Source: Candidatus Diapherotrites archaeon ADurb.Bin253
GTDB lineage: Archaea > Nanobdellota > Nanobdellia > Pacearchaeales > GW2011-AR1
Direction: 5' to 3'
Assembly: GCA_002069705.1 (NCBI GenBank)
Contig: MWBV01000001.1
Location: forward strand, 21,768 to 85,767
Length of the DNA: 64,000 nt
Made by a program: the position numbers and the translations under genes. Positions 6,515-36,054 of the stretch are shown one piece after another. The notes under the pieces are model-generated. The model searched no databases. It saw only the letters and a program-made list of their open reading frames with translations, and had not been told where the DNA came from. How positions within the stretch are numbered: the stretch's first letter is position 1; every line of letters starts with the position of its first letter.

Positions 6515-7297
6515 TTATTCTAACTCTACCCAGAAATAATAAGTGGTTGTTGAAGTATCTGTTAAATGGCCATTTTCAAGAACAAGCATTTCAAAATCAT
6601 GGGGATTGTTATCAAAACCAAGTACATCTTCATTCAATAAAGAAGCAAAAATTACACTACGTGTTGTAGGTTCATATAAAAGAACTTCTTCAAATTTGTT
6701 GTCTTCTCCTTGTCCTGCATTACTAAACACCTGTGTACTCCTACATTCTCCCTCTGAAAATTCTAAATTATTTGTATAAAAAGTATTGTGCCCTCCTGCT
6801 CCAAGTAAGGTAAATGTCTCATTAACTCCGTCAACATCATCCCAATCTATTCCAAACATAGATTCAAGTATAGATAAATTAGTACCATACATGCTTGTTC
6901 CACCTGCATTTAGAGTATCATCTGCATAAGTTCCATCTGCATCAAAATTAAAACATTGAACATAGTTCCATGCAATTGAATTATTTGTAGATGCATAGAT
7001 TTCACCTTCTGGAGAAGCCAGAGACCAATTGTACATCACATTGTCATTATTATCTGCCAGCATAATTGTACCTGAAACATTACCAAAATAACCTTGCCAA
7101 GATTGGGTTAGTGAATAACCAAATATACTCAATTCAGTTACATTTCCTGCAATAGCAGGAATTCCCATAGGATCGTCGGGTATAGCTCTTGTGGATGATA
7201 AATTAGTTACATTTGCTCCAAAAGGTTCTACAGCTAAAGCCAAAGAAATGTTCATTAAAAGACCAAAAAATATTATCGGTAAAAGCTTGAGCCTCAT
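6515..7297 (-). CDS. Secreted protein, tandem paralog family (C-terminus TTYYFWVELE)
   Basis: 260 aa with signal peptide. Shares a ~100-aa near-identical block and the C-terminal motif with 5005..5706. Confidence 0.6.
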   Translation of the reverse strand: MRLKLLPIIFFGLLMNISLALAVEPFGANVTNLSSTRAIPDDPMGIPAIAGNVTELSIFGYSLTQSWQGYFGNVSGTIMLADNNDNVMYNWSLASPEGEIYASTNNSIAWNYVQCFNFDADGTYADDTLNAGGTSMYGTNLSILESMFGIDWDDVDGVNETFTLLGAGGHNTFYTNNLEFSEGECRSTQVFSNAGQGEDNKFEEVLLYEPTTRSVIFASLLNEDVLGFDNNPHDFEMLVLENGHLTDTSTTTYYFWVELE

Positions 7298-8516: not shown

Positions 8517-8566
8517 GTTTCTTTAAATACAATCTGGTTTTTATCTCTTTTGATATCTTAAAATGT

Positions 8567-14178: not shown

Positions 14179-15852
14179 TCAATCATCTTCTTTTTCTCTT
14201 CTTCTAGCTATAATAAATAATATTATGAAGAATATTATTATGAAAATCAACATAAAGATTATATAAGTTAATAGCTTAAATCTTTGATACTTTAATTCGA
14301 AGGTCTTACTAAATATATTAACCAATGAATCTTTTCTTTCTCCATAATATGCAATAACATTAACAAAGGGGTTATTTTCTAAATCTGATTCTGTAAGTCT
14401 TTCATATACAAATATCTTTTTAGAGCGTTTTGGGAATATCTTTTCTGGAGCATCGCTTCCTAGGGTTTGTTTTAATCTATTTATTTTTATATCTTTTAAT
14501 TCGATACTTACCCAGCACTCAACATCTCCTATGTTTTTTACCTTAACTATAAATGCTTTATCCTGTAGATTGTACCTTAACTTTTTTATGTCTAATTCGC
14601 ACCTGTCTAAAATATTAACTATTTGAACATCATAAGTTCCTTGAAAAACCCTATCTAAAGAAGTAGGGGTTTCTCCATATAACACATAAACCTGAGCTGA
14701 AAGATTCTCATCTGGAACATTTACACCTTCGTAAATAACTGTTTTAAAATCTCCTGGGGCTATAAATATTTCTTCTAAGTCTCCTACACGAATATTTCCA
14801 GAAGAAGTGATAAGAGTTATTGTTCCTTTGAAATAAGCAGGCATGTTTGAGTTACTTATATATGTTACTTCTAAAGTTGAAGTAGCTTTATTATATTTTA
14901 TAGAATGAATAGAAAGATTTAGATTTGGAACAGGTATGTAAAATAAATCAAGGCCTTCAACAGGGGATACTCCAGATGTCTTTTCACGCGCGCTTCTGGC
15001 AAATTTAACCATAACATTAATACCTGTAGATTGTCTTATATTTGTAGCAGCCCCTATCAGTTCATTTCCGATTAAAACTCCTATTTCTATATCTGAAGAT
15101 TTGATGTAATCTGCAATTTTGGTTGGAACATTTTCACTTCCTGTAAAAAGCAAAGTGTTTTTTCCCTGCATTATCTCCTTTTCAATAAATTCTCCGTTAC
15201 TTAAAATAATTTGAGATATTGAACCTACTTCAGAATATTTTTTTACCATATTTATATTATCTTGGAATCTGTCTCCACTGTTTATTATTTCTGGATTGTA
15301 TTTAGCTAATGTTTCTGTAACTTCTGAATCAACATATCCATATAAAACCAAATTATTGACACCTCTAATTTCAAGTATTGCGTCTATATCATCTATATTT
15401 ACTCTATTTGCCAAAAACACCCATGAATCAGTTGCAAGGGCATAAGCTACAACAGCCATAGAATTATATCCAAAAGAATCTCCAACAACTATAAAATTTT
15501 TTATTTCTGGTAATTTATCTATTAGTTCCAAATTAGCTGAAGAAACCTCAATTTCTTCTACAGGGTCAAATCCTTTGGATTTTGCCAAACTAGGGTAATT
15601 AAATACTAAAGGATTATTTTTTGAAGATACTATCAACAAGTTATAATCTTTGTTTATCCCATTAAGTAAGATAGGTCCATGAGCAGTACTTACTAAAAAG
15701 TCTGATTCTATTCCTTTAAGATTTGCGTACATTATGCTTGAATAAACATCTTGCCAATTTTCAGAATTAGAAATAACATAATTTGGAGCAGCAAAAACAA
15801 AAGGTACTAAAAAAAAGCAAAAAACAACTGCAATAGATAATCTCTTTTTCAT
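14179..15852 (-). CDS. Surface protein with signal peptide and C-terminal TM anchor
   Basis: 557 aa. N-terminal signal MKKRLSIAVVFCFFLVPFVFA. C-terminal LLTYIIFMLIFIIIFFIILFII followed by a short basic tail RRREKEDD. Confidence 0.55.
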   Translation of the reverse strand: MKKRLSIAVVFCFFLVPFVFAAPNYVISNSENWQDVYSSIMYANLKGIESDFLVSTAHGPILLNGINKDYNLLIVSSKNNPLVFNYPSLAKSKGFDPVEEIEVSSANLELIDKLPEIKNFIVVGDSFGYNSMAVVAYALATDSWVFLANRVNIDDIDAILEIRGVNNLVLYGYVDSEVTETLAKYNPEIINSGDRFQDNINMVKKYSEVGSISQIILSNGEFIEKEIMQGKNTLLFTGSENVPTKIADYIKSSDIEIGVLIGNELIGAATNIRQSTGINVMVKFARSAREKTSGVSPVEGLDLFYIPVPNLNLSIHSIKYNKATSTLEVTYISNSNMPAYFKGTITLITSSGNIRVGDLEEIFIAPGDFKTVIYEGVNVPDENLSAQVYVLYGETPTSLDRVFQGTYDVQIVNILDRCELDIKKLRYNLQDKAFIVKVKNIGDVECWVSIELKDIKINRLKQTLGSDAPEKIFPKRSKKIFVYERLTESDLENNPFVNVIAYYGERKDSLVNIFSKTFELKYQRFKLLTYIIFMLIFIIIFFIILFIIARRREKEDD

Positions 15853-21478: not shown

Positions 21479-21637
21479 ATGGTTGAAATAACATTTAAAG
21501 ATAATAAGATACAAAAAGGCCACAGAATCAAAATTCCAAAGGCAATAGTAGATACACTTAATCTAAAAGAGGGTGCAAAAATAATTTTGAAATTTGACCC
21601 AATAAATAAAAAAATAATTGTGGAGGAAGAAAAATGA
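21479..21637 (+). CDS. Small AbrB/MazE/SpoVT-type (swapped-hairpin) DNA-binding protein; absent from the supplied ORF track
   Basis: Manual translation gives 52 aa: MVEITFKDNKIQKGHRIKIPKAIVDTLNLKEGAKIILKFDPINKKIIVEEEK. The GHRIKIPKAIVDTLNLKEGAKI stretch matches the AbrB-family looped-hinge pattern. The stop TGA overlaps the ATG of 21634 (ATGA). Confidence 0.45.
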   Translation: MVEITFKDNKIQKGHRIKIPKAIVDTLNLKEGAKIILKFDPINKKIIVEEEK

Positions 21638-21954
21638 ATAAAGTATTCTTGATAGTAATTATAGGGTCATTCTTTTTTGGAATCAGTGGGATTATTTTTG
21701 CAGAAGAATTTCAAGAAGGAATTAAACTTTCAGAGGGAAAAAATTTAGTTTATTTTAGTGAAGAGATTAAACCAATATATGCAAGTGATTTGGTTAAAAT
21801 TTATCCTGAAATAAATGCTATTACTTATTATGAGGGAGATGAAGAAAAAGGATATGTAAATGTGTTTGGAGGGGTTGGAGAAAATTTTGTTGTAATGTTC
21901 AATAACACTTACGAAATAACTGTTGAAAAGGAGGTAACATTAAAATTAAAATGA
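21634..21954 (+). CDS. Small secreted protein
   Basis: 106 aa with signal peptide MNKVFLIVIIGSFFFGISGIIFA. The stop overlaps the next start (ATGA). Confidence 0.45.
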   Translation: MNKVFLIVIIGSFFFGISGIIFAEEFQEGIKLSEGKNLVYFSEEIKPIYASDLVKIYPEINAITYYEGDEEKGYVNVFGGVGENFVVMFNNTYEITVEKEVTLKLK

Positions 21955-23144
21955 TAAAAAAGATTTCATTAAATCTGGCAATTATCTTGTTTATTTTGCC
22001 ATTGGGCTCTGCAGCGCATTATATTGTTGGAATTGTTGAAAATGCAAAAGATGGAACTAGTGCTAATGGGCAGAGTATAGTTCTTTGGAATCCTGCCGTA
22101 GGAATTCAAGAAAATGTAAGTGATATAATTGGTCCTGCTGGAAACTCCAGAACAAATAATATCTATATGATTGATTGTGAACTTCTACCAAGCGGATGCA
22201 ATGTTACAAATACCTTAAGTTTAAAGGTGATAAATAATGGGGACAATTATATTTCCCAAGAAAAAAATGTTAGTGTTGGGGGATTTGGATATGATATTGT
22301 AGAGAATATAACATTAAATTCTCCTCCAAATATCACTCTTGTAAATGTGGATGATTCAATTACTTCTCCGCAAAATGAAATTGATTTAATACCTGCTGAA
22401 ACTAAAGAAGTAATCTGTTCTGCTATTATTTATGAATATGAGGGAGAAGAGTCATTGATAAATGCAACTGGAAGATTTTTTGACAATGTTCAATCAAATT
22501 ACGATTCCTTAGAAGATAATAATGAGCATTATAGAAACAATAGTTGTTTGATAGATAAAAATTATGGAGGAGTTAATGAAGCTGCTGTTTATTGTAGTTT
22601 TTATATTTGGTATTATTCAAATTCTGAAAACTGGAATTGTACTATAGAAGTAACAGATAATTTATCTATATCCTCTAGAGGTAGTGATTTATCTTTCATA
22701 AATCCTCTTCTAGCTTTAGGAGTGGAATCAGTTGTGACATTTAATCTAACAAAATCTGACATAACTGACGAAGCAATATTGGATGTTACAAACTATGGGA
22801 ATGTTAAAATAAATCTATCTTTAAGCGGATATGCTTTTGAACAGAATGATGGTTTAGCTATGAATTGTAGTGAAGGTGAAATCAGAAATATACCTGTAGA
22901 AAATGAAAAATACAATTTAACCAATAGCAATTCAGGAGATATAACATTTGAAGAGTTTATGATATCTTATAAAAATTTGACGAGTTACCCTGCTGTAAAT
23001 AAATTCAATCTAGAATATAGAAAAGATGATTTACTAAATGAGGCTACCAAATCAACATACTGGAGGATTCATGTTCCTGACGGTATAACTGGAAATTGTC
23101 AGGGAAATATTGTTTTTGGAGCTGTAAGAGCACCAGGAGATTAA
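21951..23144 (+). CDS. Secreted protein; N-terminal ~130 aa near-identical to 26353..28218
   Basis: 397 aa. Signal peptide, then AAHYIVGIVENAKDGTSANGQSIVLWNP...NVTNTLSLKVINNGDNY shared with the paralog. Confidence 0.6.
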   Translation: MIKKISLNLAIILFILPLGSAAHYIVGIVENAKDGTSANGQSIVLWNPAVGIQENVSDIIGPAGNSRTNNIYMIDCELLPSGCNVTNTLSLKVINNGDNYISQEKNVSVGGFGYDIVENITLNSPPNITLVNVDDSITSPQNEIDLIPAETKEVICSAIIYEYEGEESLINATGRFFDNVQSNYDSLEDNNEHYRNNSCLIDKNYGGVNEAAVYCSFYIWYYSNSENWNCTIEVTDNLSISSRGSDLSFINPLLALGVESVVTFNLTKSDITDEAILDVTNYGNVKINLSLSGYAFEQNDGLAMNCSEGEIRNIPVENEKYNLTNSNSGDITFEEFMISYKNLTSYPAVNKFNLEYRKDDLLNEATKSTYWRIHVPDGITGNCQGNIVFGAVRAPGD

Positions 23145-24347
23145 ATGAATAACAAAATAAGAATAGGTATCAAAACAGGAATCATTACGTTAATTATAAT
23201 TGTAAATTTATTATATGTCTCTTCTGCAAACATAGGCGTTAGTCCAGCAAATGTTTATTTCAAAGATGTTTTAAGAGGAGGTTATGCTGAAAGAATAGTT
23301 ACAATAACTGTTGATTCTGAAGAACCTACAAAAATATCTCTTGAACCAAGAGGAGAGATTGTTGATTGGGTTTCATTTGAAGAGAAAGAATTTGAAGTTT
23401 CAAGAAATAAACCATATTATTTAAAAATAATTTTACAGCCTCCTGTTGATATACCTAATGGAAATTACACTGGTTTCTTAAGAGTAACTACCTCTAGCAA
23501 AAATAAAGGAGTTGAGGGACAAGCCACTGGAGTAATTAATGCTGCATTAGATTTATACTTAGAAGTAAAAATAACAGATGTGGAATTCTCTTCTTGTAGA
23601 GCGTGGGACTTTCAAGTAGAATCTGTAGAAAAAGGAGATGATATTTTATTTAAAGTTAAAGTGTTAAATGAAGGAAACGTTAGGCTTTATCCTACGATAA
23701 AAATAGACATGTGGGATCAAGAAAGAACAGAACTAGTCAAACAAGTAGAATTTTCTGAAGATATGATAATTCCAACAACTGAAAAGGAATTAAATATAAA
23801 GGTGGAATCTTCTGACATGAACTTGGGACAATACTGGGCAGAAATAACTTCTATTGAATGTTATGCTGCTCAAACATTAACTTTTGATATTTTAGAAGAA
23901 GGTGCTTTGAAGGCCCAAGGAAATCTTTTAAGAATCAGTTCCCCTACTTGGATTAAAGTAGACGATACGACAATAATTGAAGCTTTATTTGAAAATACTG
24001 GAGAAAAAAATGTAAATGCTAGGTTTAAAGGAGAAATTACACTTGGCAGTAGAGTAATACAAATACTAGAGAGTGAGTTGTCTAGTGTTTCCATAGGCGA
24101 AATAGAGACATTTAAATTTTATTTTACTCCAAGGAAAGAAGGTAAGTATATAGTTACTGGAATGGTATTTTATGATGGAAAAAGAACATTTGAAAAAAGT
24201 ACTGTCATAAATGTAGAAAAAAAAGGTTTTGATATTGGTGTTATTAGAACTATTCTAATTTATTTAATATTGCTTATAGTTATAGCTTATCTAGCTTACA
24301 AAATAAAAAAAGAAAAGAGGAGGAATAATTTAAGATGGAAAAGATAA
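23145..24347 (+). CDS. Surface protein with beta-sandwich domains and C-terminal TM anchor
   Basis: 400 aa with N-terminal signal. C-terminal IRTILIYLILLIVIAYLAY followed by a basic tail. Confidence 0.55.
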   Translation: MNNKIRIGIKTGIITLIIIVNLLYVSSANIGVSPANVYFKDVLRGGYAERIVTITVDSEEPTKISLEPRGEIVDWVSFEEKEFEVSRNKPYYLKIILQPPVDIPNGNYTGFLRVTTSSKNKGVEGQATGVINAALDLYLEVKITDVEFSSCRAWDFQVESVEKGDDILFKVKVLNEGNVRLYPTIKIDMWDQERTELVKQVEFSEDMIIPTTEKELNIKVESSDMNLGQYWAEITSIECYAAQTLTFDILEEGALKAQGNLLRISSPTWIKVDDTTIIEALFENTGEKNVNARFKGEITLGSRVIQILESELSSVSIGEIETFKFYFTPRKEGKYIVTGMVFYDGKRTFEKSTVINVEKKGFDIGVIRTILIYLILLIVIAYLAYKIKKEKRRNNLRWKR

Positions 24348-26356
24348 AGTCATTTTTATTTCTAGGAATTTTATTGACTTTGACACCTTTATTGATTGCA
24401 GCAAACTCTGTGACAATTAATACTTTCTATGGTTTCTCTAATGATTCGTTTATAGATGGTACAGTATACAAAACAGACTCTGTTGTTTTGAGGGTAAAGA
24501 CCTCTGTTGAAACAGAATGTTATTATGGTAAAGAAATTTATCCTTCTACTCCCTTCCAAGGAGAATATGGATTAACTCATGAAATATATTTGGAAAATAT
24601 TGAAGAAGGGTTCCATGAATATTATATAAGGTGTGGGGAAAGTTCCAATCCAATTATGAAGATAAATTTTGCAACAAGTACACCTATCTATGCTACTATA
24701 AAAATATCTGAAAATGCTCCTCTTAAATCTGGAAGGTACAAAATAAATTTAATTACTTCTAAAACAAGTTTAAATACCCCTCTTCTAGAGTATAGTTTTG
24801 ATGATTTAGTTTACAAAACAATTCCATTAAGAGGGTCTGGTAAAAATTGGGAAGGTAACTTGATAATTCCTGAAAATGCTGGTGAAAGTGTATGTTCATT
24901 TAGATTTAAATCGAAAGATATTACTGGAGAAGAAGGAACAAAAATTATTGGAGACAATCTATTCCTCGTAGATACAATTAAACCTGCTACAATTTCCATA
25001 ATTAGTGCCACAGGATATAAAGGAAAAATAAAATTAAATTGGTTTAGTGAAGAAAAAATAGATAATTATAATGTTTATAGGTCTGAATATTCTCCTGTAG
25101 ATTACACTGACTTCTATGAATTGTCAAGTAAAGATTATTTTTATGATGAAGATGTAGAAAAAGGCAAAACATATTATTATAAAATAGCTGCAGTAGATGA
25201 AGCTGGAAATATTGGAGATTTATCTAAGGAAGTATATGCTACTGCGTTGTTAAGTAATACTTCTGAAAATACTGGATTAAATATAAAATTAATTGGAAAG
25301 GTAGATAATTTTATTATAGAGATTGACTCTCTGATTAAGAATATTGAGGACATAAAAGAACTTTTAAAACTAAAAGATAATAAGGAAAAACAGATATTTG
25401 AAAGTATTAAGTTAAATAAAGAGTTGGAAAGTGCTATTCTAGAATTAAACTCTTTAAAAAGAGATGTAGAAAATTATAAACTTCAGGATTTGAGTGAAGA
25501 TGAATTAAACAAAAAAATATCTTCTTCTTCGATTAAATTGAGTATTATAAAGAAAAAGATACCAGAAGATATAACTATAATAGAGGAAGTAGAATTTTAT
25601 AGAGAGATAAAAAAAGAAGATATAGATAGAATATTCTTACAATATTCCAATTATGATGATAGAGGTTATGGTAAAGAAATAACTTATACTCAAAAATTAA
25701 TTGAAGACCCCAAAACAAAAATTAAATGTAATGCTTATAGTGTAGATATAATATATATTGATGGTACAAAAAAGAAAATAACATTTGTTGAAGAAGAACT
25801 AAGCATAAAAGAAGAATATGAAAAAGAAGTTAATTATATTTTAATAGTTCCAAAAGAAATTGCTGAAAGAGCTTCTGACATAAAAGTAATAAATTTGGAA
25901 TATGAAACTATAAAAGAAGGTCCCATAATTCTTTTTAAACCAGATGTAAAAAAAGTAACTTATTATTTTTTCAAGGAAATTCCTTTAAATTCTATTAAAG
26001 AAATAACTCTATCGCCTATTAAAATACCTTCGTTAGAAGAAGGCCAGTCAAAAATAACAGGAAATTCTATTTTAGAATATACCTCAAAAGGATATTTTGG
26101 AATAATTGTTTTAATTGCTTTTGCATTAATATTGGGAGTTTATTTTCTTAGAATAAGAAATGGTTCTTCGATTAAACCCTTATTGATAACTATGGAGAAT
26201 CTAAAAAAAGTTAAATCTCTCTTAAAGGAAGGGAGGGAACAAGAAGCTAAGGAATTGTATAGTAAAATAAAAGAAGATTATAAAACTCTTTCAAAAAAAG
26301 AAAAGGAATTGGTGGTTGAAAAAATAAATGAGATGAATTTTGGAGGAATAAGATGA
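24335..26356 (+). CDS. Surface protein with fibronectin-III-like domain, C-terminal TM and a conserved cytoplasmic tail
   Basis: 673 aa. Fn3-like YNVYRSEYSPVDYTDFYELS...GKTYYYKIAAVDEAGNIG. TM YFGIIVLIAFALILGVYFL. Tail ...LKKVKSLLKEGREQEAKELYSKIKEDYKTL. Confidence 0.6.
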   Translation: MEKIKSFLFLGILLTLTPLLIAANSVTINTFYGFSNDSFIDGTVYKTDSVVLRVKTSVETECYYGKEIYPSTPFQGEYGLTHEIYLENIEEGFHEYYIRCGESSNPIMKINFATSTPIYATIKISENAPLKSGRYKINLITSKTSLNTPLLEYSFDDLVYKTIPLRGSGKNWEGNLIIPENAGESVCSFRFKSKDITGEEGTKIIGDNLFLVDTIKPATISIISATGYKGKIKLNWFSEEKIDNYNVYRSEYSPVDYTDFYELSSKDYFYDEDVEKGKTYYYKIAAVDEAGNIGDLSKEVYATALLSNTSENTGLNIKLIGKVDNFIIEIDSLIKNIEDIKELLKLKDNKEKQIFESIKLNKELESAILELNSLKRDVENYKLQDLSEDELNKKISSSSIKLSIIKKKIPEDITIIEEVEFYREIKKEDIDRIFLQYSNYDDRGYGKEITYTQKLIEDPKTKIKCNAYSVDIIYIDGTKKKITFVEEELSIKEEYEKEVNYILIVPKEIAERASDIKVINLEYETIKEGPIILFKPDVKKVTYYFFKEIPLNSIKEITLSPIKIPSLEEGQSKITGNSILEYTSKGYFGIIVLIAFALILGVYFLRIRNGSSIKPLLITMENLKKVKSLLKEGREQEAKELYSKIKEDYKTLSKKEKELVVEKINEMNFGGIR

Positions 26357-28218
26357 ATAAAAAAATCTTATTTATATTTCTCGTATTGCTTATTTTACCA
26401 TTGAGCTCTGCTGCACATTATATTATGGGATTTGTTGAAGATGCAAAAGATGGAACTAGTGCTGATGGACATAGTATAATCCTTTGGAATCCTATTATAG
26501 GAATTCAAGAAAACATAAGTGATATAATTGGTCCTCTTGGAAACTCTGGAACAAACAATAAGTATACGATTGATTGTGAACTTTTGCCAAGCGGATGTAA
26601 TGTGACAAATACATTAAGTTTAAAGGTGATAAATAACGGGGATAATTATGTTTCACAAGAAAAAAATGTTAGTGTTAGTGTATTAGGATATGATGTTGTA
26701 GAAAATATAACATTAAATTCTCCTCCAAATACTACTCTGATTTATCCAACTGATTTTGAAAAGATTCCATATTCTGAAGTAATGTTTAATTGTTCAATAG
26801 AAGATTTAGATAATAATGCAAAAGAAATTAGTTTATATGGAAACTGGACAGGGGCATGGGAACTAAATGAAACCCAAGAAATCAGTTCGGGGGATAAATT
26901 CAAAACATTTATTAAAAGCATTGCAGATGGTTTCTACAAATACGCTTGTAAAGTAACAGACAGTTTACTAATCTCTAGTTTTTCTCTACAAAACAATAGC
27001 TTTGCAATAGATACAAACATTCCTCTAATCCAATCTATTTCTTCTAATGTTTCTAGCTTGTGTGGTAAGACAAATACAATACAAATAAATTGTACTGCTT
27101 ACGATGAAACATCAGGAATAGATAAAGTAATAATACAATCTATTTCTCCACAGAATGAAATAAACAATTACAGTGCAAATAATATTTATGATAACATCTA
27201 TTCTTATGAAATACTGCTTGATAAAATTGGAACATGGAATTTTAATTGTATAGCTAATGATAGTGCAGGAAATTACAACAATTTGTTTTTAAATGATATA
27301 AATGTTTATTCTGAACTCCCTCAAATAAGCATAAATTCTAGTTCAATTAATCTAAGCAAAACAAATCCTATTGAAACAGAAGAAATACAAATTTCTGCTT
27401 TTGTGGAGAATAAAGGATGTTCTAATGCAGAAAATGTAGTTGTTGTATTTTTTAATGGAGATCCAGAAATTTCTGGAGAGAAGATAGGAGAGAGTGTAAT
27501 AAATATAAGCGAAAATGATGGGCTTGTATCTAGTATTTCTTGGAGCACTAAAATTGGGCTAAATAATATTTTTGTTATAGGAGACTATTACAATTCTTTT
27601 GATGAAGAGGATGAAACAGACAATAAAGCAAATAATACATTTTCCATAAATTCTTGGCAAGAAATATATGGGAACACACAAGTAGATAAGGTTATTGGGG
27701 GAGACCAAGTTGAAATAAAAAAATGGTTTAATGAAAGTTATTTAGAAGGAAGTATTTTTGTAGCAGATTCTGAGTCAGATATCAACTGGTTGTCTTTAAA
27801 ACCAATAGGAAGAAAAAAAGATGGACAAAAAAGTTCAGAAGATTTTTTAGAAATAGATGAAATACTCGGGATGACTTTTTTTGAAGATTCTGTTTCTAAT
27901 GTCTTTTCTGAAAACCAAGAACCAAAAGAAACCAGAGATATGATTATTTATCAAAAAGAAATAAAAAATGTCCCGATAATTAATTCTACAGAAAACTCAG
28001 ATTTTATAACTGGTTTACTTTGGGATAGTTCAGATGACTCTTATAATGGAGAATTTGATAGTGAAGATAAAGAAGATATAGTATTTGTTACACCAATAAT
28101 TAAAAATTCTCCTGGGAAATATGGAATTTATGATTATGAGATAAGGATACCTTCAAAATTAAGAGAATACAATAAATTGAATATTGAAGAAGTTTATCTA
28201 TATTATGAACTTAATTAA
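26353..28218 (+). CDS. Secreted protein, paralog of 21951..23144 with a longer C-terminal region
   Basis: 621 aa. Its N-terminus is near-identical to 21951..23144 at both protein and nucleotide level. The stop shares the palindrome TTAATTAA with the convergent ATPase gene. Confidence 0.6.
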   Translation: MNKKILFIFLVLLILPLSSAAHYIMGFVEDAKDGTSADGHSIILWNPIIGIQENISDIIGPLGNSGTNNKYTIDCELLPSGCNVTNTLSLKVINNGDNYVSQEKNVSVSVLGYDVVENITLNSPPNTTLIYPTDFEKIPYSEVMFNCSIEDLDNNAKEISLYGNWTGAWELNETQEISSGDKFKTFIKSIADGFYKYACKVTDSLLISSFSLQNNSFAIDTNIPLIQSISSNVSSLCGKTNTIQINCTAYDETSGIDKVIIQSISPQNEINNYSANNIYDNIYSYEILLDKIGTWNFNCIANDSAGNYNNLFLNDINVYSELPQISINSSSINLSKTNPIETEEIQISAFVENKGCSNAENVVVVFFNGDPEISGEKIGESVINISENDGLVSSISWSTKIGLNNIFVIGDYYNSFDEEDETDNKANNTFSINSWQEIYGNTQVDKVIGGDQVEIKKWFNESYLEGSIFVADSESDINWLSLKPIGRKKDGQKSSEDFLEIDEILGMTFFEDSVSNVFSENQEPKETRDMIIYQKEIKNVPIINSTENSDFITGLLWDSSDDSYNGEFDSEDKEDIVFVTPIIKNSPGKYGIYDYEIRIPSKLREYNKLNIEEVYLYYELN

Positions 28219-30551
28219 TCTTTTTTTGGAGAGGATTCTTTAATAAAATTATTCAATATTTCTACTATCTTTGATTTTTCAACCTCTGCTAAAATTTTCT
28301 TGGATAATTCTGGTGAAACTTGTTCTGCCCATTTTGCAATATCGTGACGTTTAGAATTAACATGTATCTTGAAAACAGCTAATTCTATACCCGGCAATGT
28401 TTCAGCTAATTCTTTTAATGAAGATATCATTATTCCATTATCAAATGTAAGTGGTTTGAGTATTTTTGTAGATATGTTTTCTGCTTCTACTTTCTTTTCT
28501 TCTATTTTCTTTTTCTTTAATTCTTCTTTTTCATATATTGCTCTAGCTTTCCTTGCCTCTTCTACAGATTTCTGAATTTCTGAAGCGTCTATAAGTTTCT
28601 TTTCTAATTTTTTTGGTTTCTTACCTAGTTTTTCCCATTGTTTCTGTAACCTAGGTCCTATTCCTTCTATATAAATATCAACTACAGAAAAATTACCACT
28701 CATTAATTTGTCTTTTATTAATTTCAATTCCATCTTTAAATCAAATGTATCTATTTTTTCTTTTTCTAATTGTTCTATTTGATTATCAAAGTCATCAATT
28801 ATTTCATTATATTTATTGTATTTCTCTAGCTCTTCATCTGAAAGTCTTCTTGTGTTGTGTAAAATAGGTCTAAAATTTATGAAGTAGGGTTTACCTTTAT
28901 TATATGCTGTATTAACAAACATTCCAACTCCAACAGATGCTTTAACTAAGGACTGCAAAAATTCCTCTCCATATTTTATTTTTATTCTTCCTAAATCTCC
29001 TTCATCTCTTGTTCTCATTTGTATTTCTGTGTTAATATTTGCTTTAATTTCTCCTACAAAGTCACTTAAAACCTGAGAAACTAACATAACTCCAATTCCC
29101 CATTTTCTAAATTCTCTACATGCTCTTTCGATTTGTAAAAATCCTTCTCCACTACCTCCAAACTTTGAAAGTAATCTATGTACCTCGTCAAAAACTAATA
29201 AAACTTTTAAATCAGGGGTTTCCTTTGGATCTGATTTAAATATTTGTCTTATAGCACTAGCAACAAAAATATCCATATCATTTGGATCAAGTTTATTTAA
29301 TGCAAATATTTGTATTTGTCCAGGATGTATGAATCTTTCTATGTCTATTACTTCTCTAGCATGGGAGATTTGTCTAATGTTTCCAAAAAATGCTCTGGCA
29401 TCAGAGGGTTTTAATCCAAATTTTGGATAATAAGAAAGCATTTTTTTATCTTCGCATTTTCTAAGCATACCTGACCACTGAGCTGTTGGGTCAAATACAA
29501 TTACTGCGACATTTTTCATTAAAGCCTCTTCTATTAATACCTGGGCAGCAATACTCTTTCCTCCTCCTGTAGCTCCAGCAACAATACTATGTGTTTTTAA
29601 TTTTTCTGGTTCCAAGCAAGCTTTAATTTTTGTTTCTGCTATAAGCCCAAGAGATAAATTTTCTTTAGAGGGCATAGGAAGTTTTTTTGTATCTAATTCC
29701 ATACGATATTTCTTTGAAAGTTTTATACGTCTTTTGATTAGGAAATAAATGAGTAAAAATAATAAAATCATTCCTATTCCAGAAAACAAAAGCCAAAGAG
29801 GTAAGAATCCGAATAAAAGCCTACTGAAAAAAGGCTTTCTAATTACAAAATAGCTCAAGGCAGGAATTAATTCATTATTATATACTGCAGATAATTGAAG
29901 TATATATTCTCCTTTTTCTATTTCTGGAGGCATTTCAAATTCTTTTAGGTGATAAAAAGAATTAGTAAAATTAAAACTCTCCTGGCCTAAGAAATAAGAA
30001 TCGTTTTTTGTGTTGTTCAAAGAATAAGAAAGAACTATTTCGTCAAATTCTCCAGAATTTATCCTATATAAATATACTTTAAATTTAAGTTTTTCATTTA
30101 ATTTAAAATATTTTTTATAGGGTTCTACTTGAACAAAAAAAACCGGATTTAGGTCTGATTCCACTACTCGAATATTTACAAGTATCCTTTCATTAACTCC
30201 TCCTGAAATAAGTATCTCTCCAGAGTAATTTCCAATCCTTGCACCTTTAATATAAAAGTACATTGCAGAACTGTTTTTTGGAAATATTTCAATTCCAGAA
30301 GATTCAAATTCAAGTAATTCCATCACATTACCTGAAGAAGAAAATGTTGCAGAGATAGGTTCGTTCCTAAGATTGTTCACAATAATAAAATCTTGGAAGA
30401 GTGTTCCCACTTCTACACTTCTATCTACTTTGCTCCTAGAGACAACATATCCTTCTCTTTGTATCTCGTCTCCATATGCAGATTCTGCTATAATCATCTG
30501 AGAAAAGAATAAGATAAAAAAGAGTATTAGTAAAAATTTTTTTATTTTCAT
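28215..30551 (-). CDS. Single-pass membrane protein: extracellular beta-sandwich domain fused to a cytoplasmic HerA/VirB4/FtsK-superfamily ATPase (paralog of 8567..11965)
   Basis: 778 aa. Signal peptide, ~240-aa ectodomain, TM LFGFLPLWLLFSGIGMILLFLLIYFLI, then an ATPase domain with Walker A HSIVAGATGGGKS and Walker B LLVFDEVHRLL. The ATPase domain is mostly identical to ATPase1 over ~380 aa, and shared nucleotide strings show through (e.g. acctgaccactgagctgttgggtcaaatacaattactgc). Confidence 0.7.
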   Translation of the reverse strand: MKIKKFLLILFFILFFSQMIIAESAYGDEIQREGYVVSRSKVDRSVEVGTLFQDFIIVNNLRNEPISATFSSSGNVMELLEFESSGIEIFPKNSSAMYFYIKGARIGNYSGEILISGGVNERILVNIRVVESDLNPVFFVQVEPYKKYFKLNEKLKFKVYLYRINSGEFDEIVLSYSLNNTKNDSYFLGQESFNFTNSFYHLKEFEMPPEIEKGEYILQLSAVYNNELIPALSYFVIRKPFFSRLLFGFLPLWLLFSGIGMILLFLLIYFLIKRRIKLSKKYRMELDTKKLPMPSKENLSLGLIAETKIKACLEPEKLKTHSIVAGATGGGKSIAAQVLIEEALMKNVAVIVFDPTAQWSGMLRKCEDKKMLSYYPKFGLKPSDARAFFGNIRQISHAREVIDIERFIHPGQIQIFALNKLDPNDMDIFVASAIRQIFKSDPKETPDLKVLLVFDEVHRLLSKFGGSGEGFLQIERACREFRKWGIGVMLVSQVLSDFVGEIKANINTEIQMRTRDEGDLGRIKIKYGEEFLQSLVKASVGVGMFVNTAYNKGKPYFINFRPILHNTRRLSDEELEKYNKYNEIIDDFDNQIEQLEKEKIDTFDLKMELKLIKDKLMSGNFSVVDIYIEGIGPRLQKQWEKLGKKPKKLEKKLIDASEIQKSVEEARKARAIYEKEELKKKKIEEKKVEAENISTKILKPLTFDNGIMISSLKELAETLPGIELAVFKIHVNSKRHDIAKWAEQVSPELSKKILAEVEKSKIVEILNNFIKESSPKKD

Positions 30552-32446
30552 TTTTCTGTTCTCCCTTTTTGAATGCTTGTATCTTTTTTTTGTTTATTTT
30601 GTTCTTCTTTAGATTCTTTAGATTCTTTAGGTTCTTTAATCTCTTTTTTTTCTGGGGTGTTAACTTTAGGTATTTCCTTGGAATCTTTAGTGAAGGAATT
30701 GTACAAATCACTTATCTCTTTTTTTAATCTTTCTCTATCATCAAAAACCTCTTTAGGAATTGGTTCGCGATAAATATCTTTTATTTTTATAAATAATTTA
30801 AGTGCTTCATCCTCTTTATTTTGTTTTATTAAACTCTTTAATCTATTTAACATTATATACAACTCCAAAAGCCTTTCTTTCTTTTTGTCTCTTTTGTGCT
30901 TTACCATCAATATTGCTAAAAGTATTGCCACTAAAAGTATTAAAAAAGAGATAGAACCTATCTTGAAGAAAGATGCAAAATTGAATCTTGTACCTACCTC
31001 AAAAGGAACTGAATCTATAGCTATGTTCTTTTCATCTGAAGCTCTGGCATATATTAAATAATTTCCTTCAGGAGTTAGACTTGGCACTTGTAATTCTCTT
31101 TCAAGAAAAACATTGTAAAAAAACACTATTTCTTCTTCTGAAAAGTTGTACACTTTTCCTTCATAATCTTTTATAGCATAGTACAAAGAAGCATTAACTT
31201 CTTTTAAATCCTTAATATTAAATAAGCTTATATTAAATTTGATATTTTTTCCTGGTTTAACTAAAGAATACCCTTCAGATAAATTTAAAATCAAATCAAA
31301 CTCTAAATCTATTGCTTGAACATCTAATACTGTGGGAATTGACTTATTTACTTTGGGAGATTTCACATCTATATATCCAAAATATTGTCCAGGAATAGTT
31401 CTTTCTGGAGCGTAAAAATCAATAGTAATTTCTTTTGATTTTCCTGGAAGAATAGTTATGTTTGTTTCGCTAAAAATTGTGAAATTGTTTATTTTTCTTG
31501 AAGAAAGATGGATTGGAATCTCTTCTAATCCTGTATTTGTTATCTTTAAAACTCTTGTTTTTGAAGAACCTTGTTTCAAAGAAACCCTTAATTCTGATAT
31601 ACTAAGCTGAAAGTTTTCAGATTTTCTTTTTTGAATTTCTATTTTACTTAAAATTCTATCCACTAGCCGAGATGGATCTTTACCAGAATCTCCACTGCTT
31701 CCTCCACCCCCAGAATATCCTCCAGGTATTTGTTGGGTAGAAACAACAAATGATTGTATGGGCGTAAGGTTCATATTTTCAGAAGTATCGAATGCATAAA
31801 ATCTCCAATAAACAGTATTTAATGGGGGTGCTCTTATTTGAATGTTACGAAAAGAGACGTTTTCTAATCCAGAAAAATTTGTAGAAGAATAATTTTCCCA
31901 TCCTGCTCCTTGGTTTATTGAGAAGATATATCTGCCTAACCCTCTGTCATCTGTCCAATTTGTTACAAATGTTATTATGTCATTTTGATAAACTGTTTGT
32001 TTACTTATATTTGGGGAAGACCAGTTAGGGGGGGAAGAATCTAATCCCACATATAACATAACTACATTACTAAGGGTATCATAAATAGAATCTGAAGCAT
32101 AAAAAGTTACGTTCCTAGTCCCCGTAAATCCTTCTCTTGGAAAAAAAGAAACTTCATTTGTTAAGGGGTCTATAAATACATAAATATCTTCTACAGAAGA
32201 ATTATAGTATGAAAGATTTGGAGAATCTGCATCTGAGAAATAATCATCTAAATCAAATGCATTTAAATGATTTTGATTCTCTGGCCAGCTTTGGTTTGGA
32301 ATGTCCTTTATAAGAAACGGGGGAGAATTAGGAATATCTAAACTAGTTAAGATATCAGCAGATACAAATTGTAAAAAACAAAATAAAATTACAAATATCA
32401 TCTGTAAATATTTTTTCCCCTCTTTTAAAAAAAATGAAAATCTCAT
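30548..32446 (-). CDS. Surface protein with beta-sandwich domain, TM and conserved cytoplasmic tail; translationally coupled upstream partner of ATPase2
   Basis: 632 aa. Signal peptide, GGGGSSG linker, TM IGSISFLILLVAILLAILMV, tail ...LNRLKSLIKQNKEDEALKLFIKIKDIYREPIP. Overlaps 28215..30551 by 4 nt. Confidence 0.6.
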   Translation of the reverse strand: MRFSFFLKEGKKYLQMIFVILFCFLQFVSADILTSLDIPNSPPFLIKDIPNQSWPENQNHLNAFDLDDYFSDADSPNLSYYNSSVEDIYVFIDPLTNEVSFFPREGFTGTRNVTFYASDSIYDTLSNVVMLYVGLDSSPPNWSSPNISKQTVYQNDIITFVTNWTDDRGLGRYIFSINQGAGWENYSSTNFSGLENVSFRNIQIRAPPLNTVYWRFYAFDTSENMNLTPIQSFVVSTQQIPGGYSGGGGSSGDSGKDPSRLVDRILSKIEIQKRKSENFQLSISELRVSLKQGSSKTRVLKITNTGLEEIPIHLSSRKINNFTIFSETNITILPGKSKEITIDFYAPERTIPGQYFGYIDVKSPKVNKSIPTVLDVQAIDLEFDLILNLSEGYSLVKPGKNIKFNISLFNIKDLKEVNASLYYAIKDYEGKVYNFSEEEIVFFYNVFLERELQVPSLTPEGNYLIYARASDEKNIAIDSVPFEVGTRFNFASFFKIGSISFLILLVAILLAILMVKHKRDKKKERLLELYIMLNRLKSLIKQNKEDEALKLFIKIKDIYREPIPKEVFDDRERLKKEISDLYNSFTKDSKEIPKVNTPEKKEIKEPKESKESKEEQNKQKKDTSIQKGRTEK

Positions 32447-32548
32447 TTACCCTCTATTTTAGTTATTATCTACCTATTTATTTAAACCTTATTAAAAAAA
32501 TACTCTAAAAAAAGAAACCTTTATAAAGTACCTAATGGTTTTTATATA

Positions 32549-32752
32549 ATGCCTAAAAAAGACCTAAATGATACTAAATACAAAAGCGCTACTGTTAAAG
32601 GAACTATCCCATTTAATCAAAAAGAGGCAATAAGAAAATTGATTGGAGTCATAGGTAGCAATGAACAAGATGTGGTTGGAAAAATAATAACTCTCTGGTT
32701 ATATAATGAAGGGTATCTAACAAATAAAAATAAAAAAGGAGAGTCAAAATGA
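32549..32752 (+). CDS. Small hypothetical protein
   Basis: 67-aa ORF ending 4 nt into the next gene. No recognisable motifs. Confidence 0.25.
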   Translation: MPKKDLNDTKYKSATVKGTIPFNQKEAIRKLIGVIGSNEQDVVGKIITLWLYNEGYLTNKNKKGESK

Positions 32753-35700
32753 AAGGCAAGATATTTCTGATATTTTTGGTATTCTCTTTATTGATTATGT
32801 CTCCAATTACTATTGGAGCAGATGGAGAGATTAACAATCCAGAAGATAATCCAAATTCTGAATTAAATGAAGATAATAATAATAAAAATCAAGAAAACAC
32901 TGAAACAACAAATGCAAATAGTTCTTCTGAAGATTTAAACAAAGTTATAGATGAAGTACAAAAACAAAATATAAACGATGATGAAAATAATGAAAGTAAT
33001 TCTGATAAACAAGATATAAACGATAATGAAAATAATGAAAGTAATTCTGATAAACAAGATATGGAAGATGGTTCTAATGAATCTAATTCAACAGAGATAG
33101 AATTGGAGAATTTATCTTCACAAGAAAATTCTGTATATATTTCTTCGAATAATATCTCACCTCCTGAAGAACCCAAAGAGGAACAACCTGCTGCATTGCT
33201 TGTTGAATCTTCAAAAGAAGAGAATTCTGGTCCTTGTTGGGGATATGATGCTCTTGGGAAAAAGGTGATAAAGATAGAAGACTGTGAGGAGGGAGATATA
33301 GAAAAAATTAAACCACTAGAAGAGCTTGAGATAAGTGAATTTGAAAAAGAGGTGATTGTCTCAAGTAAAGAAGATTTCAATAAACCAATTAGAGTTTATA
33401 GTATTTTAACAAAAGAAGCAAATAAAGAAGAAATAAAGATATTCTGGAAAAACGAAAACAACTTAGAGATAACTCAAGATGAATCTTTTTCTGTTGAATA
33501 CTATGATAAAAATGAAAATGGATTAATAGATAAGGTTTCTTGGATAGTCCCACACTTAAGTGAGCAAAAATTTAAGATAATAGTTGAAATTGAAAATCCT
33601 AAAGAATCTACAGAAGAACTTTTACTAAATGTTACTGGACCTTCTGGACAAACCAGGAATCCGATAAATTTCAATATAGAAGTTAATTATTCTGGAAATT
33701 TTAATTGTAATCTCAAAATCGGAAATGAAGAAGCTCTTGCTTTTTCTTCTAACAAAAATTATAGTTTAGACCTTCGAGATGGAGATTATAATTGGGAAGT
33801 TATCTGTTATGATAGTGTTGATGGAACAAATTCGTCAATTACCAATGCCACATTTGGTGACTTTTCTGTTAATGAAGGTGTTTATTATACTAACTTAACT
33901 GAAGGAAAATTATATTTTTTGGATTTAATACAAAACAAAATACAAAACCCTGAAACAATAACAATTAATTCGACAAACCCTTCTAACTACACTATTAAAA
34001 TAAAAAGAAATGAACAAGAAATTTATACAAAGGAATCGTTTAATAATACAAACATTCTGATGAATGAATTAATACTAAGTTCTGCTGGAAATTATACTTT
34101 AAGTGTTAAATTTAAAGAACCTTCTCCAGAATATGAAATTCTTAAGAACTTTTATGTAGCAAGTGCAAATATAACTTTAAATGCAACTTCTGTTGAAGAA
34201 GGTAAACCTGTTAAGATAACTGCTATAGGTAACTCTCAAGATAAAGCCATTTCTACTATAATAATTGATTATGGAGATGGAACTAGTGATTATAATCATA
34301 TAAATGCAAATTCTTTTTCAAAAGAGTTTGTTAAAACATACAACAAAAACGGAAATTACAATATAAAATTATTTATAACAATTCCTGGAGAAGATACATT
34401 TAATATTATCAAAAATGGATTAGTTGTTACAAAACCTACAACACCTACAACCCCAAAAGATGAGAAATCTCCAGAAATTGAATTATTATATCCTGAAGAT
34501 AAAGAGATATTTGAAGTAAATCATGTAAACTTTTCATATAAAGCTAGTGATGATGTTAAAATACAAAATTGTACATTTAAATTATATGAAAATTGTGCTT
34601 CTATGACTACTTGTTCTACAAGTGAATCTAATTTATTGTACCAATCATTCGCAGATGCAAATAACTTTTCTGGTCAAAAAAATAAAGAAATTAGAGTAAA
34701 TTTAAATAAATTTAATGATGGAATTCATTTATGGGAAGTAGAATGTTATGATAATTCTTCAAATAATGCTTGGGAAAGGGGTTTTTTAAAGATTAAAGTA
34801 AATGAAAGTCAAACATCAACTACTCAAAATTATTCTCAAAAAGCAGAAATAGATAGGCTAAAAGAAATTGCAGATCACTTTATTACAAAAAGTTTCAGCT
34901 TAGAAGAAAAAGAGGTTTTAGAAGACCTTATACTCCTTGAAGATACAAAGTATTACAAAAAAAGGCTCTTAGATATTGAAAATTTCTTTAGGGAGAATTA
35001 CAAATATGTTTCAAGTGAAGAATTAAGAAACAAAAAAACAGAGGAATACTTAACTGAATTAAATGAAATAAAAAACAAGATACCTAAAGAAATATCTATT
35101 AAAGAAAACTATGAATATGTTAAGAACAGTGTAGAAACAGATTTTGAAGATGTTATAAAAAGCTATTTTGACTCAACAAATACTCAAATCAGTAAATCTT
35201 CTCTTAAAAAATTAGCAACTATAAATAGAGAATTACAAAATGACATATCTATATCTACAAAAGTTAGGAAAGTGGAGATAGAGTATAATAATGGTACACA
35301 GGAGATAATATTAGTAAAGAAAAAAATTGATTTAAATGATGATTCCCATGAAAGAATATTAGAAATAATCCCTAAAGAAGTCCTAGAAAATAGTGATGAT
35401 GTTTTTTTCTTGGTTGATAGCAAAGTGATTCAAAAAGACCCTATTTTTGAAATAGATTACGATGACTTGGAAAAAGGAGAAATTTTATATTACTTAACTA
35501 AAAAAATAAAGATAAAGGATATAGAAAAAACAGAAACAATACTTTTTGAAGATAATTTAAATAAATTTGAAAGGGGGGTCACAGGACTGTTTATTCTTGA
35601 ATTTGCTTCAATAGATAATACAATTTATTTTGTGCTTATTTTTGTTTTGTTAGTTGTTTTAATCTCTATGGTATTTTTTGTGATTAAAAAATTCAAGATG

Positions 35701-36054
35701 ATTGGTTGGAAAAAAGAACCCAATGTTGTTAGGGTGCTAAATTTAATTGAAGATGTAAAAAGAGCACTTAAAGAAAAGGACATAGAGAGAGCAAGGGAGA
35801 AATATTATAAGATAAAGGAAATATATCCTGTATTGCCTTCAAAAACTAAACCCTATTTTTATGAAAAAATAAAAGAAATGTTGATTAGGATAGATAGAAA
35901 AGATATTTTTGGGTTAGTTAAAGAATATCAAGAAGCAAAAAGAAAATGGAATAAAGAAGAGGTTCTTAGATTGTACGAAGATATTAGAAAAATCTATGAA
36001 AGATTACCTGAAAAAGACAGGAAAAAAGTATATGGTATAATTAATGGATACTAA
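32749..36054 (+). CDS. Giant (1101-aa) surface protein with an acidic tandem repeat, a domain shared with the other giant surface proteins, C-terminal TM and a conserved cytoplasmic tail
   Basis: Signal peptide; 45-nt tandem repeat at 32971..33060 encoding INDDENNESNSDKQD twice. Domain IKIFWKNENNLEITQDESFSVEYYDKNENGLIDKVSWIVPHLSEQKFKIIV matches 15887..21349. TM IYFVLIFVLLVVLISMVFFVI; tail ...AREKYYKIKEIYPVLPSK... Confidence 0.65.
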   Translation: MKGKIFLIFLVFSLLIMSPITIGADGEINNPEDNPNSELNEDNNNKNQENTETTNANSSSEDLNKVIDEVQKQNINDDENNESNSDKQDINDNENNESNSDKQDMEDGSNESNSTEIELENLSSQENSVYISSNNISPPEEPKEEQPAALLVESSKEENSGPCWGYDALGKKVIKIEDCEEGDIEKIKPLEELEISEFEKEVIVSSKEDFNKPIRVYSILTKEANKEEIKIFWKNENNLEITQDESFSVEYYDKNENGLIDKVSWIVPHLSEQKFKIIVEIENPKESTEELLLNVTGPSGQTRNPINFNIEVNYSGNFNCNLKIGNEEALAFSSNKNYSLDLRDGDYNWEVICYDSVDGTNSSITNATFGDFSVNEGVYYTNLTEGKLYFLDLIQNKIQNPETITINSTNPSNYTIKIKRNEQEIYTKESFNNTNILMNELILSSAGNYTLSVKFKEPSPEYEILKNFYVASANITLNATSVEEGKPVKITAIGNSQDKAISTIIIDYGDGTSDYNHINANSFSKEFVKTYNKNGNYNIKLFITIPGEDTFNIIKNGLVVTKPTTPTTPKDEKSPEIELLYPEDKEIFEVNHVNFSYKASDDVKIQNCTFKLYENCASMTTCSTSESNLLYQSFADANNFSGQKNKEIRVNLNKFNDGIHLWEVECYDNSSNNAWERGFLKIKVNESQTSTTQNYSQKAEIDRLKEIADHFITKSFSLEEKEVLEDLILLEDTKYYKKRLLDIENFFRENYKYVSSEELRNKKTEEYLTELNEIKNKIPKEISIKENYEYVKNSVETDFEDVIKSYFDSTNTQISKSSLKKLATINRELQNDISISTKVRKVEIEYNNGTQEIILVKKKIDLNDDSHERILEIIPKEVLENSDDVFFLVDSKVIQKDPIFEIDYDDLEKGEILYYLTKKIKIKDIEKTETILFEDNLNKFERGVTGLFILEFASIDNTIYFVLIFVLLVVLISMVFFVIKKFKMIGWKKEPNVVRVLNLIEDVKRALKEKDIERAREKYYKIKEIYPVLPSKTKPYFYEKIKEMLIRIDRKDIFGLVKEYQEAKRKWNKEEVLRLYEDIRKIYERLPEKDRKKVYGIINGY

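Follow-up and report, generated by a model that had tools for sequence, protein, structure and literature searches.

What does a conserved tail do behind the membrane anchors of archaeal surface proteins? The question is raised by a 64,000-nucleotide stretch of Candidatus Diapherotrites archaeon ADurb.Bin253 (contig MWBV01000001.1, positions 21,768 to 85,767), which was analysed at its full length and is called the window below. Three of its genes, P1, P2 and P3, encode proteins with a C-terminal transmembrane (TM) helix. A first-pass annotation of the sequence had noticed that the residues after this helix have a pattern of about 35 amino acids (aa) in common, and it took the pattern for a sorting, anchoring or motor-docking signal on three otherwise unrelated proteins. 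Our analysis indicates that the pattern belongs to a longer unit that is predicted to fold independently; P1 and P2 have one copy each, and P3 has two. We put the chance that this tail unit serves adhesin-like type-I surface proteins of Woesearchaeota and Pacearchaeota as a docking or oligomerisation module in the cytoplasm at about one half. The coordinates of the features are collected in Table 1.

The topology of the three proteins was examined with a hydropathy scan. Each has an N-terminal signal-like helix and a single C-terminal TM helix, which is followed by residues rich in lysine and arginine. A Pfam scan gave Ig/PKD-type matches on the ectodomains of this set. Because of these three features, the tails, 64-123 residues long, are read as probably cytoplasmic.

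The three strings quoted in the annotation were found exactly at the C-termini of P1, P2 and P3. Only one copy per protein had been counted; the multiple alignment revealed a second copy in P3, at its extreme C-terminus (unit b), which had been missed. A profile hidden Markov model built from the three tails, as the annotation had proposed, was too weak, and on the six-frame translated window it found its training sequences alone, but a profile made of 17 units succeeded. Against the 47 window proteins, the 17-unit profile matched P1, P2 and P3 only (72, 58 and 69 bits), and none of the other 44 proteins, many of them rich in lysine and glutamate, exceeded 4.3 bits. In the related loci compared at that stage, it matched only proteins of the P1, P2 and P3 types. 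When each group was left out of the profile in turn, the scores were 38.5 bits for P1, 19.6 for P2, 34.3 for unit a of P3 and 19.5 for unit b. Composition-matched shuffles scored around 0 +/- 2-3 bits, and the real score was reached by none of 2000 (z = 8-18). The shuffles and the low scores of the lysine- and glutamate-rich window proteins thus place the motif beyond random sequence of this kind, as the annotation had supposed.

A chance likeness of low-complexity helices rich in lysine and glutamate would be the simplest explanation of such a pattern, and a short linear sorting signal such as PGF-CTERM would be another. The tails are indeed rich in these residues, and the three-sequence profile by itself finds nothing else in the window. 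Both explanations are excluded by the shuffle tests, by the profile scores within the window and by the 236 database clusters described below (39 of them at E <= 1e-10), and we find them hardly credible. A confident AlphaFold fold also speaks against them, as does the length of the tail, which far exceeds a few basic residues. No PGF, PEF or similar motif stands before the TM helix, where the residues are SKGYFG in P1, FNFASFFKIG in P2 and FASIDNTIY in P3.

The units of P1, P2 and P3 carry the family signature A-x3-Y-x2-I-x3-Y-x2-L-P-x-K-x5-Y-x2-I, with EPIP in place of LP in P2. In the consensus of 188 units, the most constant positions are Y34 (95%), Y27 (94%) and A23 (81%), followed by L37-P38 (79% and 77%), Y46 (76%), I30 (72%), I49 (70%) and K40 (64%). 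No family model was placed on the tail by Pfam or NCBIfam, whether the tails or the complete proteins were scanned, which agrees with the earlier remark that the motif was not recognised from a described family. The tail and the soluble repeat protein introduced below were also undescribed in the literature searched, including studies by Makarova and co-workers of dark matter, membrane proteins and type IV pili in archaea.

Structure prediction with AlphaFold2 was performed for the TM helix and tail of P3 (with 7 sequences) and for full-length P1 (with 46 sequences). In the P3 model, the mean predicted local distance difference test score (pLDDT) was 84.5, with more than 90 in the tail, and the predicted template-modelling score (pTM) was 0.65. 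After the TM helix, helices were placed at 52-69, 73-89, 95-126, 130-144 and 149-161 in the numbering of the segment, so that the third helix of unit a continues into the first helix of unit b. The P1 model had a mean pLDDT of 84.2 and, at a tail pLDDT of about 85, tail helices at 614-631, 635-649 and 654-667. An antiparallel helix-turn-helix hairpin of the TPR type, about 34 residues long, is present in both models (52-69 with 73-89, and 614-631 with 635-649; pLDDT 85-94). The tail unit is therefore predicted to be a folded element of about 55 residues and three helices, namely a TPR/PPR-like helix-turn-helix, a Y-x2-LP turn and a third helix. The models thus replace the short sorting signal of the annotation with a folded unit.

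The unit was classed as a hairpin of the TPR/PPR kind with a third helix added because the consensus PPR repeat KAGRLEEALELFEEMKE can be aligned with its core, KeGkeeEAlelYnkiKe, because matches of TPR_6 and TPR_12 below their thresholds fall on two tails, and because TPR domains, including those of Hop, Sgt2 and RPAP3, dominate the weak Foldseek matches of the P3 segment (E = 0.2-1, TM-score 0.2-0.3). The PPR comparison covers 17 core residues at about 9 bits per repeat, and its total is significant only since the designer target repeats the unit 8-10 times; the Pfam PPR models gave no match on the tails. The best-scoring Foldseek match of the segment was the SbsC S-layer coiled coil (E = 0.05); long helices alone probably account for it, and it was set aside. 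Foldseek matches of the full P1 model are dominated by the three tandem Ig/FnIII domains of its ectodomain and are uninformative on the tail.

The carriers of the unit are less independent than they had seemed. BLASTP aligned residues 350-667 of P1 with residues 719-1044 of P3 (E = 1e-10), an alignment that takes in about 230 ectodomain residues, the TM helix and the tail. P1 and P3 are thus paralogues with about 330 common C-terminal residues, made up of a stalk, the TM helix and the tail. The stalk module, of about 220-230 residues, is membrane-proximal and lies directly before the TM helix in both, and the two proteins would have inherited the tail unit within this single C-terminal module. 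P2 scored -25.8 bits with a stalk profile of 82 sequences. In pairwise BLAST it matched the tail only (E = 3e-4 with P1, about 1 with P3), and when the P2 orthologues were compared with the P1/P3 module in hhalign, the alignment was confined to the TM helix and tail (probability 94.6%, E = 7e-8). The description of the carriers as otherwise unrelated therefore holds for the P2 ectodomain but fails for P1 and P3.

The distribution of the unit was determined by an exhaustive hmmsearch of 1.84 billion representative proteins with the 17-unit profile. At E <= 1e-3 the yield was 236 clusters (50% identity), of which 39 passed E <= 1e-10; architectures were counted in 150 listed clusters of the 236. 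In about 100 of the 150, one or two units begin 8-27 residues past a TM helix and end at most about 10 residues from the C-terminus. The stalk module of the P1/P3 type was present in 87 of the listed representatives, and 30 of the 150 were gene-call fragments. Five listed clusters bear the tail on other ectodomains: P0107 (of the P2 type), P0111, P0138 and P0164 (together one type), and P0154; P2 and these proteins are without the stalk module. In most cases, then, the tail closes the proteins of a single large family whose N-terminal ectodomains vary. P2 and a few other architectures bear it on unrelated ectodomains, so that the tail also behaves as a unit portable between them. The idea of diverse ectodomains is right in that more than one type exists, but most carriers form one family with the stalk, TM helix and tail module. 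Named matches of the tail profile came from Woesearchaeota and Pacearchaeota.

Other searches returned less. A word-indexed protein search with four units gave 10 short fragments only, which were gene-call fragments or contig ends of orthologues, and pattern-based contig scans found 3 loci (genome) and 6 loci (metagenome). A P2 orthologue at 8479-10267 of locus L001, for example, is frameshifted into gene calls of 461 aa and 88 aa. Fragments of this kind, starting from an internal methionine, are frequent among the database proteins matched to the tails, and they mislead word-indexed searches. One protein of the P3 type (P0020) is deposited under the name 'Cloacibacterium sp.', a bacterium; its source is almost certainly a mis-binned archaeal contig.

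A second group of carriers emerged from the same search. About 14 listed clusters contain soluble proteins of 600-850 residues with an N-terminal winged-helix-like domain (..AAKxLxVPxxTVEAWAxFLEE..), 3-5 units of the tail type and a C-terminal ..VKMPV peptide, and about 8 further listed clusters contain proteins of 340-460 residues with three units. The repeat unit of the soluble proteins reads ..LxxxxxLLxxGxxxEAxxxYxxIKxxYxxLPxGFxxEKxxLxxxIxxxY.., with a period of about 73 residues. Homology of these repeats to the tails is supported in both directions of comparison. The tail profile aligned with the profile of the soluble family over 55 columns in hhalign (probability 95.3%, E = 2e-8). With the soluble-family profile, which contains no tail sequences, the tails of P1, P3 and P2 were the sole matches in the 47 proteins of the window (17.1, 14.7 and 12.3 bits). 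Those soluble proteins that have an organism name come without exception from Woesearchaeota or Nanoarchaeota, and all are annotated as hypothetical. In 3 of 3 genomes examined, their genes lie directly upstream of T2SSE, T2SSF and T2SSF, which encode a type IV pilus ATPase and platform. The soluble repeat protein probably belongs, as a cytoplasmic part not described before, to a type IV pilus-like machine of archaea. It has the repeat unit, the lineage and the cytoplasmic side in common with the tails, and it differs from their carriers in having neither TM helix nor ectodomain and in its pilus ATPase/platform context, which is not that of HerA. A cytoplasmic, machine-associated role of the unit gains support from these proteins because they carry a homologous unit next to T2SSE/T2SSF.

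This finding bears on the idea that the tails dock to the pilus-like machinery itself, being recognised by, or stacking on, the soluble protein with a winged helix and five units, which would link the surface proteins to the T2SSE/T2SSF ATPase and platform. The unit otherwise occurs only in the soluble proteins upstream of the pilus genes, the homology runs in both directions, source names of the Woesearchaeota type occur in both families, and the window itself encodes a T2SSE ATPase. Shared repeats, however, indicate a common origin and not an interaction; the soluble repeat protein was not found in the 64-kb window, the T2SSE gene there lies 25 kb from the tail-bearing genes, and the signal peptides of the surface proteins are of the Sec type and not the pilin type. 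Pilin-type signal peptides were also sought in the neighbouring secreted proteins, and only Sec-type ones were seen; no T2SSF platform gene was recognised among the window proteins scanned with Pfam. We consider docking to the pilus machinery quite improbable.

Alternatively, the tails may bind one another in place of a separate partner: an intramolecular bundle would arise from the two units of P3, and P1 and P2, with one unit each, would pair likewise, each with itself or with the other, so that the surface proteins cluster into oligomers or a lattice. Exactly two units occur in 79 of the 82 P3-type members, and they are modelled in P3 as one continuous helical segment (pTM 0.65). The single-unit proteins P1 and P2 are encoded in one conserved cluster, and single helical hairpins often dimerise. 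Self-association of this kind leaves the 3-5-fold arrays in the soluble proteins of pilus-ATPase operons unexplained, and we regard it as unlikely, although it keeps appreciable weight.

Conservation was measured between the window proteins and their orthologues in loci L001, L002, L004, L014 and L015. The whole tail of P3 is 75-85% identical, its stalk 58-65% and its N-terminal ectodomain 37-44%. In P2, the tail unit is 74-84% identical, the ectodomain 36-64% and the C-terminal extension 26-28%. These values point to strong purifying selection on the tails of P2 and P3. A passive structural cap would be another explanation of the tail, which would then have no specific partner: inherited with the module, it would be a topogenic or stabilising plug by which the single TM helix keeps its orientation and is retained. 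It would agree with the constant position of the tail, always at a fixed distance shortly after the TM helix and a basic stretch, and with the P1 tail, which is no more conserved than the rest of its protein. It accords poorly with the tail being the most conserved region of P2 and P3, with the conservation of exposed charged positions (K40) and with the occurrence of the unit in soluble proteins. Two further TM-anchored proteins encoded in the window cluster, by 23145..24347 and 14179..15852, also make do with basic tails of 9-15 residues and are without the tail unit. Because these two have only short basic tails, the tail is not a general requirement for sorting or anchoring. The cap is, in our estimation, improbable.

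Which partner might a docking module have? P2 is followed in its operon by a gene for a membrane HerA/FtsK-like ATPase, and the two genes overlap by 4 nt at the P2 stop codon. The order ATPase(-), P2(-), a small open reading frame (ORF) of 67-69 aa and P3(+) is kept in six distinct genomes, namely the window (and L018), L001, L002, L004, L014 and the divergent L016, whose P2-like protein retains a recognisable unit (14.8 bits). The NCBIfam models for HerA and for the DNA-translocating ATPase CedD gave weak matches to the ATPases, far below their cut-offs. The small ORF of the window (32549..32752(+), 67 aa) overlaps the P3 start codon and has no Pfam match; ORFs of 68-69 aa occupy the equivalent position in L002, L004 and L016. 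By eye only, it has the look of a small regulator of the ribbon-helix-helix type.

We infer that the tail unit mediates protein-protein docking or oligomerisation at the inner face of the membrane, and would there tie the surface proteins, whose ectodomains are adhesin-like (Ig/FnIII, PKD and similar), to a partner in the cytoplasm or the membrane. A complex around the co-operonic HerA/FtsK-type ATPase would be the likeliest docking partner, which we name tentatively and with well under even odds. Several ectodomains could thereby be held together as a single envelope-spanning assembly. A far-reaching version makes the tails the intracellular couplers of an unrecognised envelope-spanning apparatus in Woese- and Pacearchaeal (DPANN) symbionts. 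In it, several adhesin-like type-I proteins would be docked by way of a lineage-specific TPR/PPR-like tail domain onto a hexameric HerA/FtsK-type membrane translocase, host contact that the ectodomains sense or make would be coupled mechanically or allosterically to ATP-driven transfer of DNA or protein, and the docking unit would have been reused by a type IV pilus scaffold. This picture is speculative and improbable.

Several observations weigh against a docking role and against the ATPase as the partner. The synteny bears on the whole proteins and not on the tail specifically. In locus L023, a P3-like gene (9336-10477) has been cut down to stalk, TM helix and tail, is 53-56% identical and frameshifted, and no HerA-like ATPase or P2 occurs within 10 kb of this tail module; the tail therefore need not have the ATPase in its gene neighbourhood. 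A second HerA-like ATPase of the window, called ATPase1, has no tail-bearing neighbour, and neither ATPase contains a motif related to the tail. In P1, conservation of the tail does not exceed that of the remaining protein (47-61%). As to the fold, no TPR or PPR model of Pfam reached its threshold on the tails (best TPR_6 with 13.2 bits against a cut-off of 26.3 and TPR_12 with 13.0 against 30.1, E about 0.1), and Foldseek of the P3 TM helix and tail against the PDB gave nothing below E = 0.05, that is, no significant structural neighbour. P1 and P2 have one unit and P3 has two, so that the tails fall short of the usual TPR-style array of at least three, and one or two units are too few for the groove of a classical TPR array; arrays of 3-5 are confined to the soluble relatives.

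The two ATPases also figured in the first-pass annotation, which had seen a related motif, EEAKKAREIYEKEE, at the C-terminus of ATPase1. The string is present in that protein and scored -7.2 bits with the tail profile, so that it is not the motif. A region FDLKMELKLIKDKLMSGNF... resembles the tail by eye and also scored negatively. No part of either ATPase exceeded 2.2 bits, and sequence kinship between ATPases and tails was rejected. The ATPases themselves are paralogous (58% identity over 654 aa), each with a signal peptide, an ectodomain, a TM helix and DUF87. By eye, their cytoplasmic ATPase halves are near-identical and their N-terminal ectodomains different. In the shorter one, next to P2, about 100 aa form an additional C-terminal domain (ILKPLTFDNG...HVNSKRHDIAKWAEQV), on which Pfam gave no match.

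Table 1. Positions of the tail-bearing proteins, their parts and associated genes (window coordinates unless a locus is named; bits for tail units refer to the 17-unit profile).
Feature	Position	Strand	Description
P1	24335..26356	+	within operon 21634..28218(+)
P1 stalk module	25382..26032	+	aa 350-566; helical bundle and alpha/beta domain; 123.7 bits with the 82-sequence stalk profile
P1 C-terminal TM helix	26096..26158	+	aa 588-608, then RIRN; hydropathy scan and AlphaFold helix 588-608
P1 tail unit	26177..26341	+	aa 615-669; one predicted three-helix unit PLLITMENLKKVKSLLKEGREQEAKELYSKIKEDYKTLSKKEKELVVEKINEMNF; 72.2 bits; AlphaFold pLDDT ~85
P2	30548..32446	-	minus-strand operon shared with the HerA-like ATPase 28215..30551, convergent to the P1 operon
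P2 C-terminal TM helix	30902..30970	-	~aa 493-515, then KHKRDKKKER; hydropathy scan, profile-profile alignment
P2 tail unit	30698..30871	-	aa 526-583; LLELYIMLNRLKSLIKQNKEDEALKLFIKIKDIYREPIPKEVFDDRERLKKEISDLYN; 58.0 bits
P2 C-terminal extension	30551..30691	-	aa 586-632; rich in K, E and P; poorly conserved, outside the motif
P3	32749..36054	+	divergent from P2
P3 stalk module	34903..35592	+	aa 719-948; homologous to the P1 stalk
P3 C-terminal TM helix	35623..35685	+	aa 959-979, then KKFKMIGWKKE; hydropathy scan and AlphaFold
P3 tail unit a	35719..35883	+	aa 991-1045; 68.6 bits; AlphaFold pLDDT >90
P3 tail unit b	35899..36051	+	aa 1051-1101; 63.6 bits; leave-out z = 9
Membrane HerA/FtsK-like ATPase	28215..30551	-	signal peptide, ectodomain, TM helix, DUF87; PF01935 45.1 bits (cut-off 23.2); motif absent (tail profile at most -2 bits per domain)
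ATPase1, second HerA-like membrane ATPase	8567..11965	-	PF01935 43.9 bits (cut-off 23.2); EEAKKAREIYEKEE is not the motif
Soluble repeat protein examples	L007 10001-11968; L009 319-2673; L010 6001-8226		proteins P0059, P0040, P0072

The window has a G+C content of about 28% and encodes the archaeal replication proteins Cdc6/Orc1 and PolD (both subunits, small and large); a contig from an activated-sludge metagenome is 99% identical to it. Near relatives of the proteins studied here bear the labels Candidatus Pacearchaeota or Woesearchaeota, which makes the organism a DPANN archaeon. The P1, P2 and P3 genes sit in an island of genes for secreted and membrane-anchored proteins. Two secreted proteins of one operon, 21951..23144(+) and 26353..28218(+), are near-identical over about 130 N-terminal residues, with the common stretch ..SAAHYI(V/M)G(I/F)VE(N/D)AKDGTSA(N/D)G.., and divergent beyond, which suggests a domain duplication or gene conversion inside the cluster. 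P3 contains a low-complexity tandem repeat rich in N, D, E and S near the N-terminus of its ectodomain (..NNESNSDKQDINDNENNESNSDKQD.., aa ~72-115, window ~32960..33095), which is its least conserved part. Elsewhere, 4179..4955, 5005..5706 and 6515..7297 (all on the minus strand) encode three paralogous secreted proteins with Sec-type signal peptides, no Pfam match and a common C-terminal motif, ..HDFEM(L/I)V(L/P)ENG...YYFWVELE or YYLYVELE. The T2SSE-type ATPase of the window (60860..63148(+), 762 aa) has an N-terminal extension of about 400 aa and is flanked by two paralogous five-TM proteins (59087..59653(+) and 63188..63709(+)) with near-identical C-terminal halves.

DPANN archaea live attached to other cells, and to our knowledge almost nothing is known of how their large variable surface proteins are organised and linked to the cell interior. 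The tail, as a conserved and apparently folded cytoplasmic domain, is the best-conserved part of P2 and P3 within fast-evolving adhesin-like proteins, and it gives a testable hypothesis for coupling between inside and outside. It could be used as a small soluble bait in pull-down experiments, and its profile could serve to find putative members of the complex in metagenomes. Even if the tail were only a structural cap, it would still constitute a new domain family of about 236 clusters at 50% identity, worth a database entry. The class of TPR/PPR-like helical hairpins is already known, as is the general logic of a conserved cytoplasmic tail on type-I surface proteins. Three things are new relative to Pfam, NCBIfam and the searched literature: the tail family, the membrane-tethered use that DPANN archaea make of it in one or two copies, and the connection of the family with the soluble repeats of pilus operons.

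Among known systems, the PGF-CTERM element processed by archaeosortase ArtA resembles the tails in being a C-terminal element of archaeal surface proteins that includes a TM helix. PGF-CTERM is tripartite (PGF motif, TM helix and a few basic residues) and is cleaved off, whereas the tails described here are without PGF and place a predicted folded domain after the TM helix. The ESCRT-III-binding MIT domain is a three-helix TPR-like bundle similar in size to the tail unit. MIT models of Pfam gave no match on the tails at E <= 10, and there was no significant match in sequence or structure. The N-terminal domain of USP8 (2a9u), which we take to be its MIT domain, is among the weak Foldseek matches (E ~0.8-1.1), and we treat the resemblance as a lead only. 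The tails of eukaryotic type-I adhesion receptors such as integrins and cadherins recruit adaptors, mostly via short linear motifs in disordered segments. Like the P1-type proteins, these receptors combine an Ig/FnIII-type ectodomain with one TM helix and a conserved cytoplasmic tail common to paralogues, which is presumed to bind partners inside the cell. The likeness is one of analogy and not homology, as there is no sequence or evolutionary relationship and the archaeal tail is a predicted helical domain. A further comparison is with the TPR/PPR repeats (Pfam CL0020), which usually form soluble arrays of at least three. The tail unit differs from them in being tethered to a TM helix as a single or double copy and in its own Y-x2-LP-x-K...Y-x2-I signature. 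It is like them in its helix-turn-helix with the K-x-G-x2-eEA-x2-lY/F-x2-iKe turn and second helix, and their usual role in protein-protein interaction would be expected for the tail unit too.

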